From contig CAVWNC010000004.1 of NCBI GenBank assembly GCA_963756455.1, positions 503,098 through 567,097 on the forward strand: a DNA stretch of 64,000 nt, given 5' to 3'. Position 1 is the stretch's first letter. Each line of letters opens with the position of its first letter. Source of the stretch: an uncultured Acidobacteriota bacterium. GTDB lineage: Bacteria > Acidobacteriota > Thermoanaerobaculia > Multivoradales > UBA5704. Of this stretch, positions 13,706 to 16,636 are shown one piece after another. A program made the translations under genes and the position numbers. The notes beneath the pieces are model-generated. The model saw only the letters and a list, made by a program, of their open reading frames with translations, was not told the DNA's origin and made no database searches.

Positions 13706-16636
13706 ATGCCCGATCCGGCGGAGTTCCGGCAGGCGATCCCGCTCTACCAGGTGCTGGTCGAAGAGTTCAATCACCAGTATCCTGACTCTCCCATCCCGCT
13801 CGAGGCGATCACCGGCAAACGCGCCGCTTATGAAGCGGAATACGACGGCGAGCATCCGTACGGCGAGGCGGGGACGCCCGAGGCGCGCGAAGAGCGGCGC
13901 CAGGCGATCGACTACCGGCTCGTCCGGGAGTTCTACTGCCAGCTCCACCAGAAGAGAGTCGAACGCTCGGCCCTCTGCTTTTCGGGCGGCGGCATCCGGA
14001 GCGCCACGTTCGGGTTGGGGATTCTCCAGCGCCTGGCGCATCTCGGCCTGGTGACGAGATTCAACTTCCTCTCGACGGTATCGGGCGGCGGCTATCTCGG
14101 CAGCTGGCTCTCCGCCTGGATGGAGCGCGAGGCCGGGGGACCCGCGGCGGTGGAGGCGGAGCTCTCGCGGCCTCCCCGTTTCCCCTTGAGCCCCGAGCCG
14201 CAGCCGGTCTCCCACCTGCGCAGCTACAGCCGCTACATCAGCCCGCGGTTCGGCCTGCTCTCGGCCGACACCTGGACGCTCGTCGCGATCTTCTTCCGCA
14301 ACCTGTTCCTCAACTGGCTGGTCCTCCTGCCTCTCCTGGCCGTCGCCCTGATGATCCCGCGGATCAGCATCTACTTGGCCCGCCAACAGCATCCGCCTTC
14401 CTGGGTGCCGCCCACGGTCTTCGGGTTCGGGCTCCTCTGCGGCATCGGCGCCATCGCCTATCTCGGCATCCATCGGCCCAGCCTGGAGGGGAAGTCGGTG
14501 TTTTTCCGCTGGCCGGACCAGTGGCGCGGGCAGGTCGCTTTCCTCTGGCTCTGCCTGTTGCCGCTCTCGATCATGGCGATCGCCACCAGCCTCTACTGGG
14601 CCTGGGTCCCGATTCCCCTGGAACGCCTGTCCTTCGACGTGTTCGGTCTCCACATCCCTCCCCAGAAGGCGGCTCTGGCGTTCGTCGGGTTCGGGCTCGC
14701 CCTTCACGGCGGCGGCTATCTCGTGGCGCGGCTTTTCGTGCCTCTGCCCAAGCGGGAGATCCTCGGGGTGATCGTGACCGGCGGCCTGGGGGGGTACGCC
14801 GCCTGGCTCGCCGCGAGCCGGCTCTTCCCCATGCTCTGCGGCGAGGCGAACGTCCTGCGCTACGTCTGCTTCGCGGCCCCTCTGCTCCTCTTCCTGTTCT
14901 TAGCCACCGCCACCCTCTTCGTCGGGCTCTCCAGCAAGTACACCGAGGACGAGGATCGGGAGTGGCTCGCCCGCGCCGCGGCCTGGATCCTCATCTTCGT
15001 CGTCGTGCGGAGCACGGTCAGCCTGATCGTCATCTATGGCCCGGTCGTCTGGCATGTCGTGGGGGTCAAGTCGATGAGCGCCGTGGGGGGGATCTCCGGC
15101 CTGCTGACGCTCCTTCTAGGCCTGAGCTCCAAGACCGGGGCGAGCGAGAGCAAGAAGAACGAGCCGGCGCCGCCCTCGACCCAGGTGGCGAATCTCGCGA
15201 TCAGTCTGGCGGCGCCGCTCTTTGCGCTCTCCATCGTCGTCGGCCTGGCCTTCGGCACCACCCTCGTGATCCGGCTCCTCGCCCCCGCTCTCCGCCCCGG
15301 CTTCGCCTGGCCCGTGGACGATCTCAACCCCGACGATCCGCACGGCCATCTGATCACCCTCTACCACTCATCCGGTTGGGTGATCCTTGCGGTGACCTTA
15401 GGCCTCGGCGCCCTTGGGTGGATCATGGGCTACTACGTCGACATCAACCGCTTCTCTCTCCACGCCGCCTACCGCGACCGCTTGATCCGTGCCTATCTGG
15501 GCGCCTCGCGCAATCACGACGAGAGGCATCCCAACCCGTTCACCGGCTTCGATCCGGCGGACAACCTGCAGATGCAGGAGCTGCGGAAGATCGAGCGACC
15601 TTTCCACGTCGTCAACGCCGCCTTGAACCTGGTGGGCGGGAAGAACCTCGCCTGGCAGGACAGAAAAGCCGAATCGTTCACTTTTTCGGCTCTCCACAGC
15701 GGCAGCTTCTGCGTCGGCTACCGCCCGTCGGACCGCTATGGGCTCCACCGGGACAAGAAGAAGGCGATCTCGCTCGGCACGGCGCTCGCCATCTCGGGCG
15801 CGGCGGCGAGCCCCAACATGGGGTACCACTCCTCGCCGGTCATCACCTTTATTCTCGCCCTCTTCAACGTCCGCCTCGGCTGGTGGCTGGGAAATCCCGG
15901 GCCGGCGGGCGACAAGACGTACGACAAGTCGGGGCCGACCTTCGCGCCGAAGGCGCTTCTCGCCGAGGCGTTCGGCCTGACCGACGACGAGCACCCCTAC
16001 GTCTACCTCTCGGACGGCGGCCACTTCGAGAACCTCGGGCTTTACGAGATGGTGCTCCGGCGCTGCCGCTACATCGTCGTCTCGGACGGCGGGGGAGACC
16101 CCGAGTTCAATTTCGAGGACCTGGGCAACGCCCTCTCGAAGATCCGGGTCGACCTCGGGATCTCGATCGAGTTCGACCAGCTGCCCATGCGCTCGCGGGA
16201 CGATCTGGCCGGAACGAGCTTCGACCGCGCCCCGGGGAAGCGCGAGTTCGCCTACTGCGCCCTCGCCCGCATCCCCTACTCCTGCGTCGACTACCTGAAG
16301 ACTCCCGGCGATCTGGGGGACATCGACGGCTGTCTCCTCTACGTCAAGCCGTCCCTGAACGGCACGGAGCCGGCCGACGTCTTCCACTACGCCAAGCTCC
16401 ACCCCGGTTTCCCCCACGAGTCGACGGGCGACCAGCTCTACAGCGAGTCGCAGTTCGAGAGCTATCGGGAGCTCGGCTACCATGTGATGGAGGATGTGGG
16501 CGGCCCGCAGAGAGAAGAGCCCCTGGAGATGCTGGAGCTCTTCGAGCGGGCCGCCGGGTATGCCGGCGGGAAAAACCCCTGTCAAAGGAGCGAGGTGGGG
16601 GAGAAGGGGACGGTCGAGGAGGATTTTACGGCGTAG
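13706..16636 (+). CDS. large (976 aa) patatin-like phospholipase family protein with a polytopic transmembrane region inserted between the catalytic motifs
   Basis: RBS ggagg. Oxyanion motif CFSGGGIRSATFG near aa 93. A non-canonical nucleophile elbow STVSGGGY (T-x-S-x-G) near aa 125. About 10 predicted TM helices span roughly aa 190-560. The Asp motif YLSDGGHFENLGLYE lies near aa 770. Confidence 0.65.
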   Translation: MPDPAEFRQAIPLYQVLVEEFNHQYPDSPIPLEAITGKRAAYEAEYDGEHPYGEAGTPEAREERRQAIDYRLVREFYCQLHQKRVERSALCFSGGGIRSATFGLGILQRLAHLGLVTRFNFLSTVSGGGYLGSWLSAWMEREAGGPAAVEAELSRPPRFPLSPEPQPVSHLRSYSRYISPRFGLLSADTWTLVAIFFRNLFLNWLVLLPLLAVALMIPRISIYLARQQHPPSWVPPTVFGFGLLCGIGAIAYLGIHRPSLEGKSVFFRWPDQWRGQVAFLWLCLLPLSIMAIATSLYWAWVPIPLERLSFDVFGLHIPPQKAALAFVGFGLALHGGGYLVARLFVPLPKREILGVIVTGGLGGYAAWLAASRLFPMLCGEANVLRYVCFAAPLLLFLFLATATLFVGLSSKYTEDEDREWLARAAAWILIFVVVRSTVSLIVIYGPVVWHVVGVKSMSAVGGISGLLTLLLGLSSKTGASESKKNEPAPPSTQVANLAISLAAPLFALSIVVGLAFGTTLVIRLLAPALRPGFAWPVDDLNPDDPHGHLITLYHSSGWVILAVTLGLGALGWIMGYYVDINRFSLHAAYRDRLIRAYLGASRNHDERHPNPFTGFDPADNLQMQELRKIERPFHVVNAALNLVGGKNLAWQDRKAESFTFSALHSGSFCVGYRPSDRYGLHRDKKKAISLGTALAISGAAASPNMGYHSSPVITFILALFNVRLGWWLGNPGPAGDKTYDKSGPTFAPKALLAEAFGLTDDEHPYVYLSDGGHFENLGLYEMVLRRCRYIVVSDGGGDPEFNFEDLGNALSKIRVDLGISIEFDQLPMRSRDDLAGTSFDRAPGKREFAYCALARIPYSCVDYLKTPGDLGDIDGCLLYVKPSLNGTEPADVFHYAKLHPGFPHESTGDQLYSESQFESYRELGYHVMEDVGGPQREEPLEMLELFERAAGYAGGKNPCQRSEVGEKGTVEEDFTA

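Follow-up and report, generated by a model that had tools for sequence, protein, structure and literature searches.

A patatin/cPLA2-like lipase interrupted by a ten-helix membrane block in an uncultured Acidobacteriota bacterium

The gene and its parts

The window analyzed here is a stretch of 64,000 nucleotides from an uncultured Acidobacteriota bacterium of the Thermoanaerobaculia (assembly GCA_963756455.1, contig CAVWNC010000004.1). On its forward strand lies a complete gene for a protein of 976 amino acids (aa) that combines the motifs of a patatin-like lipase with a large set of membrane helices. A first-pass annotation, made from the letters of the sequence, had described it as a patatin-like phospholipase with Ser and Asp motifs separated by an insertion of about 370 aa. 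The insertion is real, but its size was slightly underestimated: the block is about 390 aa long. Another 190 aa of soluble sequence separate it from the Asp, which puts the two presumed catalytic residues, S126 and D770, 644 aa apart. The exact protein is present in the public protein collection (entry P0001). The gene and its parts, all on the forward strand, are as follows (TM, transmembrane; AF2 denotes the AlphaFold2 structure models discussed below).

13706..16636, +, complete gene for the TM-interrupted patatin/cPLA2-like lipase (list of open reading frames; ATG start, 976 aa and stop)
13706..13960, +, N-terminal helical leader, aa 1-85 (AF2 helices, pLDDT about 90)
13961..14263, +, N-terminal half of the catalytic domain, aa 86-186 (Pfam Patatin at aa 90-159; AF2 strands 88-94 and 121-126)
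13985..14002, +, GGGIRS oxyanion/phosphate-binding motif, aa 94-99, including invariant R98 (motif scan, 33-sequence alignment)
14075..14089, +, T-V-S-G-G nucleophile elbow, aa 124-128, with nucleophile S126 (motif scan, alignment; follows AF2 strand 121-126)
14264..15445, +, inserted ten-helix membrane block, aa 187-580 (hydropathy; full-length and block-only AF2 models)
14948..14965, +, DxDREW motif, aa 415-420, at the cytoplasmic start of TM7 (alignments of 33 and 91 sequences)
15446..16525, +, C-terminal half of the catalytic domain, aa 581-940 (Patatin match after deletion of the block; AF2 alpha/beta elements)
16013..16033, +, DGGHFEN motif, aa 770-776, with the putative catalytic D770 (motif scan, alignment, AF2 context)

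The leader is poorly conserved, with a mean family identity of 0.34, and a Pfam scan of the window protein and its family members revealed no C2 or other domain within it. The N-terminal catalytic half, for which family identity is 0.68, comprises strand 1, the oxyanion loop, strand 2, the nucleophile elbow and a conserved juxtamembrane motif, HLRSYSRYxSPxxGLLS. The Asp motif lies in the C-terminal half, whose first element is an invariant helix, NxFSLHxxYRxRLIRAYLGASR.

Catalytic motifs and evidence for one split domain

The GGGIRS motif, the T-x-S-x-G elbow and the DGGHFENLG sequence near residue 770 that had been noted at the first pass were found at aa 94-99, 124-128 and 770-778, respectively. 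Their conservation was assessed in an alignment of 33 homologues of 50-94% identity. All six residues of GGGIRS are invariant, as are V125, S126, G127, G128 and G129 at the elbow and D770, G771, G772, H773, F774 and N776 at the third motif; the first Gly of the GxSxG elbow is replaced by Thr throughout the family. Invariant R98 of GGGIRS is presumably the counterpart of the phosphate-binding Arg of cPLA2, which would fit a phospholipid or lysophospholipid as the substrate.

In the native protein, the Pfam Patatin model matches aa 90-159 over positions 1-68 of its 191 (29.1 bits against a gathering cutoff of 27.7), and a match confined to the start of the profile is what an interrupted domain should produce. 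When aa 187-580 were removed in silico, the match crossed the join and continued through aa 581-613, so that it covered profile positions 1-118 and the score rose from 29.1 to 33.8 bits. Neither the block alone nor the C-terminal half alone gave any Pfam match. Within the family, the Patatin model matches 29 of the 33 members; the PLA2_B model (PF01735) does not match the window protein and was hit by 3 of the 33, with a best E value of 0.25.

The full-length AF2 model, built with the 33-sequence alignment (pLDDT 77.5, pTM 0.73), consists of ten long helices at aa 187-577 flanked by alpha/beta strand-loop-helix units that bear all three motifs. Strand 88-94 leads into GGGIRS, strand 121-126 into S126, and strand 765-769 into D770. 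Beyond D770, a helix (777-784) is followed by a strand (789-794) that ends in invariant D794, and this succession of strand, DGGHFEN, helix, and strand reproduces the canonical strand-DGG-x3-N-helix-strand layout of patatins. Comparison of the model with the PDB by Foldseek placed human cPLA2 first (1CJY_A, E = 9.7e-4, probability 1.0) and GIVD cPLA2 second (5IZ5, E = 2.9e-3, probability 1.0), although the TM-scores of these matches are only 0.19-0.28 and the aligned identity is 12-14%. VipD was among the weaker matches. At the sequence level, querying PDB sequences with the entire protein, either as a single sequence or as a profile, returned nothing relevant, and Smith-Waterman alignments of each half with Escherichia coli RssA scored no better than shuffles.

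These results confirm that the protein is one patatin/cPLA2-type catalytic domain interrupted by a polytopic membrane insertion. The two halves would dock into a single fold, with D770 as the likely catalytic partner of S126, an assignment based on the motif pattern, the invariance of the residues, their secondary-structure context, and the fold class.

Membrane topology

A Kyte-Doolittle scan with a 19-residue window detected approximately 10 hydrophobic segments at aa 200-575, with none before residue 199 and none after 576. Together with the AF2 model this bears out the ten or so hydrophobic helices of the earlier description. That these segments might instead be the buried core of a soluble domain is contradicted by their number and length and by the distribution of charge around them: Lys and Arg residues average 12.5 on the predicted cytoplasmic loops and 6.0 on the periplasmic ones, a positive-inside bias that is found in 32 of the 33 sequences. 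The same scan revealed neither a signal peptide nor any hydrophobic stretch ahead of aa 187, and the 186-aa N-terminal half is thus left with no export route. Given this lack of an export signal and the even number of helices, both catalytic halves would lie on the cytoplasmic face, and the active site is predicted to face the cytoplasmic leaflet of the inner membrane.

Many bacterial patatins, ExoU and PlpD among them, work outside the cytoplasm, and the window protein could by analogy be turned toward the periplasm or the cell surface and act on lipids that are exogenous or belong to the outer leaflet. Such an arrangement is hard to reconcile with an N-terminal half that has no means of crossing the membrane and with a charge bias that puts both halves inside the cell, and Pfam detected neither a POTRA nor a beta-barrel module. 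We therefore consider it very improbable.

The inserted membrane block

Modeled alone (aa 165-600), the block gives a confident structure, with a pLDDT of 90.1 and a pTM of 0.86, for which a Foldseek search of the PDB found no significant fold (best E = 0.14, TM-score 0.19). No Pfam model, transporter models included, matches it in the window protein or in family members, and alignment of TM1-5 with TM6-10 by hhalign gave no sign of an internal 5+5 repeat (probability <1%).

The ratio of nonsynonymous to synonymous substitution rates (dN/dS), computed against a 93%-identical relative (locus L085), is 0.15 for the whole gene and also for the block, 0.12 for the N-terminal catalytic half and 0.07 for the C-terminal half; for the non-conserved C-terminal tail it is 0.48. 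Judged from these substitution patterns, purifying selection acts on all regions of the gene, the block included. Conservation within it is not evenly distributed across the membrane. In an alignment of 91 sequences, the helix halves in the cytoplasmic leaflet have a conservation of 0.636, compared with 0.527 for those in the periplasmic leaflet (one-sided Mann-Whitney p = 4e-4), and of the 73 positions in aa 160-605 with conservation of ≥90%, 56 are cytoplasmic. They include D188/T189/W190, the TM1 residues R198/N199/N203/W204, DxDREW at 415-420 and the helix that follows TM10 (N581-x-F-S-L-H...R590-x-R-L-I-R-A-Y-x-G-A-S). DxDREW is the most conserved element inside the block: D415, D417, R418, E419, and W420 are invariant in the 33-sequence alignment and 90-100% conserved in the 91 sequences.

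Since the block is conserved and under selection, and since its invariant polar residues gather at the cytoplasmic membrane boundary, the comparative evidence indicates that it is a functional module and more than an anchor. The concentration of conservation on this side fits a conserved face that touches both the catalytic domain and the boundary of the inner leaflet, and that boundary would fit the place where a lipid would have to exit the bilayer to reach S126.

Ten conserved and selected helices exceed the needs of an anchor, and this can be taken to suggest transport: the block would translocate a lipid, a lysolipid, or a fatty acid, between leaflets or out of the cell, and the patatin domain would deacylate or transacylate the lipid that is moved, making the protein a functional analogue of LplT working with Aas. 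Some patatin-family enzymes are indeed transacylases, and one homologue (P0143) has a weak C-terminal match to GNAT acyltransferases, the only match to emerge from a check of long family members for fused domains. The block, however, has neither a solved transporter fold, in spite of its confident model, nor the internal repeat typical of secondary transporters, nor a Pfam transporter match, and conservation is lower in its periplasmic half. On balance, an enzyme that couples hydrolysis to transport, or that transacylates, is distinctly unlikely.

Family size, spread, and literature

The window gene is an ordinary, typical member of a very large family and has no locus-specific peculiarity. 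Thousands of bacteria from soil and water share its design. A word-indexed protein search gave 5,072 matches, of which the best 120 are essentially all full-length (~920-1,150 aa), and an exhaustive search of 50%-identity cluster representatives gave 17,319 proteins at E ≤ 1e-3 and 7,443 at E ≤ 1e-30. Scanning one genome per species yielded at least 597 confirmed relatives. The best 80 of these come from Acidobacteriota (Thermoanaerobaculia, Pyrinomonadaceae, Bryobacteraceae, Terriglobia, and Vicinamibacterales), Nitrospirota (Nitrospira), Verrucomicrobiota, Gemmatimonadota, Chloroflexota (Limnocylindria), Bacteroidota (Spirosoma fluviale and Dyadobacter), and the Alpha-, Beta-, Gamma-, and Deltaproteobacteria (Massilia, Geobacter, and Methylobacteriaceae among them).

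The design is kept across this range. Both motifs are present in 261 of 268 homologues, and in these 261 the number of TM segments between the motifs has a mode of 10. A TM segment is absent before GGGxR in 257 of the 261 and absent after DGG in the same number. Distant rhizobial versions have the same design with a shorter block of ~6-8 segments, and many homologues have either an unannotated stretch of 100-300 aa added at the N terminus or larger blocks (up to 1,533 aa). Paralogue pairs occur in some genomes, for example two on one 658-kb contig and two on separate contigs of one Gemmatimonadetes metagenome-assembled genome; homologues P0044 and P0074 and loci L039 and L044 are examples of such paralogues or variants.

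Relatives were also found on 43 plasmid or chromid records, from Rhizobium, Sinorhizobium, Cupriavidus, Methylobacterium, Bradyrhizobium, Streptomyces, and others, annotated either with PGAP's generic label, "patatin-like phospholipase family protein," or as "hypothetical protein." A search of a phage collection found no copy. The window protein has no NCBIfam match, and neither Pfam nor NCBIfam has a model dedicated to a TM-interrupted patatin family. We found no paper that studies or describes a membrane-split patatin architecture.

The first-pass view of the protein as unusual therefore holds against characterized patatins and fails for the architecture as such, which is shared by a very large family across phyla. 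The counter-suggestion made at the same time, that this might be a common, conserved family with a known housekeeping role, is right as to commonness and conservation; the known role is missing. The catalytic chemistry and the fold class are already known. What appears to be undescribed is the insertion, inside the catalytic domain, of a conserved polytopic membrane domain with no recognizable fold.

Genomic context

The neighborhood of the lipase gene includes the following features, in addition to hexapeptide-transferase, polysaccharide-deacetylase, and GT4 genes.

8097..10490 and 10474..12948, +, tandem of full-length ADOP-type MacB/FtsX permeases, 45% identical to each other
12980..13606, +, ADOP remnant, 208 aa
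16640..17244, low-GC patch
16707..17189, -, membrane protein of 160 aa
17232..18431, -, protein of 399 aa, apparently secreted
18454..18675, -, HicB-like antitoxin
18678..18929, -, HicA toxin

The context was examined by clustering all flanking open reading frames from 82 loci. No neighbor cluster was common to more than 8 of them, and the recurrent neighbors reflect lineage-specific synteny only, such as a soluble patatin in Nitrospira, LptD in some Pyrinomonadaceae, and a PAS/GAF histidine kinase. Four loci inspected singly (L001, L002, L085, and L086) have mutually unrelated neighbors. The lipase is a stand-alone gene and is not part of a multi-gene system. In Nitrospira (L007 4331-5965 and 7 other loci), a conventional patatin of 544 aa, with an uninterrupted Pfam Patatin match over profile positions 1-190 of 191, is encoded directly upstream of the TM-interrupted one, on the same strand. 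A scan for sigma-70 promoters and terminators around the lipase gene of the window gave nothing exceeding shuffle expectation.

The first-pass annotation had placed the gene on a segment that takes in a patch of lower GC content and lies downstream of a decayed ADOP copy. The G+C content (GC) of the gene is 0.667 compared with a window mean of 0.685, and its GC at third codon positions (GC3) is 0.90 compared with 0.86-0.92 for its neighbors; the lower overall value probably reflects the hydrophobic amino acid content of the protein. With GC3 native, the idea that the gene is horizontally acquired island cargo was rejected. The low-GC patch itself (GC 0.567, GC3 0.70, with neighbors at ~0.9) proved to be a separate matter. 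Homology to the 93%-identical relative L085 extends over 13611-16639 at 91.9% nucleotide identity, breaks, and resumes from 17245, and the slot in between is occupied in L085 by an unrelated Sigma70_r2 gene. This break and the different gene mark the patch as a separate, strain-variable slot. The 160-aa membrane protein encoded there in the window matches the Pfam 8xMP model below threshold (19.1 bits; cutoff 30), and a functional link between it and the lipase was rejected, since L085 has a different gene in its place.

The ADOP remnant is genuine: ADOP residues 17-42 and 288-465 are all that survives in it, and its periplasmic domain and C-terminal half have been deleted. A connection with the lipase was likewise rejected, because the upstream flank is not syntenic with L085, the closest relative. 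The whole ADOP flank (8097-13606), including the tandem of full-length permeases, is missing from the L085 locus.

Downstream, the 399-aa protein has a hydrophobic N terminus that, judged by eye, is like a signal peptide, and it has no Pfam, NCBIfam, or PADLOC match. Its gene adjoins those for the hexapeptide transferase, polysaccharide deacetylase, and GT4 protein, and in L085 its position and sequence are kept (88.6% nucleotide identity). The HicAB pair lies between this gene and the hexapeptide acyltransferase gene; the hicA segment 18702-18927 is missing from L085, where the hicB-like gene alone is kept.

Patatin lipases are established membrane-degrading effectors of CBASS (PMC13069673), and this raises the question of whether the window protein might be a single-gene conflict or suicide effector. 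Its block would sense perturbation of the envelope by a phage or toxin and release the lipase against the cell's own membrane, causing abortive infection, much as in CBASS but with the sensor built in. The occurrence of the family on plasmids and chromids, its patchy distribution, the presence of several paralogues in some genomes, and the strain-variable slots that flank the window gene (the low-GC cassette and the HicAB module) all lend themselves to this explanation. So does a plasmid of Mesorhizobium sp. 131-2-1 (L087 65-5967), on which a distant relative of 858 aa (2542-5118), with ~7 TM segments in its insertion, has three TIR-domain genes and small hypothetical genes around it and a site-2 protease gene in the vicinity. 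This association is, however, that of one locus in a distant clade, and no neighborhood so reminiscent of a conflict system was seen around members of the window's clade. PADLOC gave no defense-model match for the lipase, the 82 loci contain no conserved sensor or partner, and there are no phage-borne copies. Codon usage is native, and in L085 the same downstream polysaccharide-related genes stand beside the lipase. Conservation in the block, furthermore, is concentrated on the cytoplasmic face, whereas an envelope sensor would be expected to be conserved on the periplasmic side. The earlier suggestion of an effector lipase is thus without contextual support in this clade, and we regard such a role as unlikely; the alternative that was offered with it, a membrane-remodeling lipase, is the more plausible of the two.

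Favored explanation and its significance

The explanation that we favor, with moderate confidence, is that the protein belongs to the patatin/cPLA2 superfamily as an acyl hydrolase of the Ser-Asp type, integral to the inner membrane, with the lipids of the cell's own membrane as its substrates. One catalytic domain would be assembled from two cytoplasmic pieces, aa 86-186 with GGGIRS and S126 and aa 581-940 with D770. The membrane block would link these pieces and hold the alpha/beta fold directly on the inner leaflet, and it may form or gate a path along which the acyl ester of a glycerolipid, either a phospholipid or a lysophospholipid, arrives at the active site. Deacylation of inner-membrane lipids, for turnover or remodeling, would follow, and the enzyme would need no partner genes devoted to it. 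The analysis shows the architecture, the invariance of the motifs, the topology signal, the fold class, the selection and the stand-alone context; what we infer from these are D770 as the catalytic partner, the docking of the two halves, the substrate and the function of the block.

Several considerations weigh against this explanation. The AF2 loops near D770-H773 and at aa 700-710 have pLDDT values below 50, and no hidden Markov model or profile alignment put D770 on the canonical patatin Asp. A phmmer search of the PDB with the 134-aa DGG region returned chance matches only, and hhalign comparison of the block-removed family profile with RssA and with an RssA-family profile gave probabilities below 1%, and the resulting alignments were disregarded; the latter profile is shallow, the homologue search having produced only close relatives (≥72% identity). 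In the literature we found no enzymatic or lipid data on any family member. A lipase permanently tethered at its own inner leaflet would need tight control, and no regulator is evident. Lastly, a patchy and partly plasmid-borne distribution fits an accessory function better than core housekeeping.

A more far-reaching version of the proposal concerns the block. It may be a previously unseen fold that evolved within the enzyme and serves as a lateral lipid conduit or gate, linking a cPLA2-like active site to the state of the bilayer. We put this forward tentatively, as an unlikely possibility. If it were true, the protein would be a self-contained membrane-state sensor and lipase, a built-in remodeler or executioner of the membrane triggered by stress or infection, and the first lipase to be described in which a polytopic membrane domain divides the catalytic domain.

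Lipases of the patatin/cPLA2 type are as a rule soluble, and what controls them is their regulated recruitment to membranes. A family built permanently into the inner membrane must handle access to substrate and self-protection in a different way. The architecture would surprise lipid enzymologists and membrane structural biologists and would repay solving, even if by itself it opens no long-standing question, and the existence of so large a family with neither its own Pfam or NCBIfam model nor any literature that we could find represents a sizeable blind spot in bacterial lipid biology. The family is testable, as culturable carriers exist, including Methylobacterium radiotolerans, Sinorhizobium, Spirosoma, and Massilia.

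Comparison with known systems

The closest structural likeness is to the cytosolic phospholipases, cPLA2-alpha (1CJY) and GIVD cPLA2 (5IZ5). Both these and the window protein have a GGGxR motif with a conserved Arg, and in both the Ser and the Asp (the latter putative here) are hundreds of residues apart with non-core sequence, known in cPLA2 as the "cap," between them. The C-terminal half, as in cPLA2, is larger than that of the small bacterial patatins. In contrast, cPLA2 is soluble and is recruited to membranes by its N-terminal C2 domain, whereas the window protein has no C2 domain, its intervening element is a ten-helix membrane block, and PLA2_B does not match it.

With the canonical patatins (PF01734; potato patatin, RssA, ExoU, VipD, and CapV), the window protein shares a Pfam Patatin match above the gathering threshold and the order GGGxR, x-S-x-G, DGG. 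They differ in having one contiguous, soluble domain of ~190 profile positions, such that only 114 residues separate Ser from Asp in RssA compared with 644 here, and in the first residue of the GxSxG elbow, which is Gly in these proteins and Thr in the window family. CapV differs also in context: the CD-NTase operon pattern of CBASS has no equivalent here, as PADLOC gave no match in the window and the 82 loci show no conserved neighbor.

Two further groups share with the window protein an association of patatin and membrane. PNPLA6/NTE is a membrane-tethered patatin, and patatins of this type act on the cell's own phospholipids and lysophospholipids. Its single N-terminal TM helix and its cyclic-nucleotide-binding domains precede an uninterrupted patatin domain, however, and the window protein has none of these features. 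In the type Vd autotransporters PlpD and FplA, a patatin lipase is likewise covalently tied to a membrane-embedded module. The hallmarks of that type, POTRA and an Omp85-type beta-barrel, are absent from the Pfam domains of the window protein and its family members. In PlpD, as described in PMC11116518, a C-terminal 16-stranded outer-membrane beta-barrel and a POTRA domain stand in series with an intact patatin domain. The module of the window protein, in contrast, is an alpha-helical bundle of the inner membrane, and it lies inside the catalytic domain itself.

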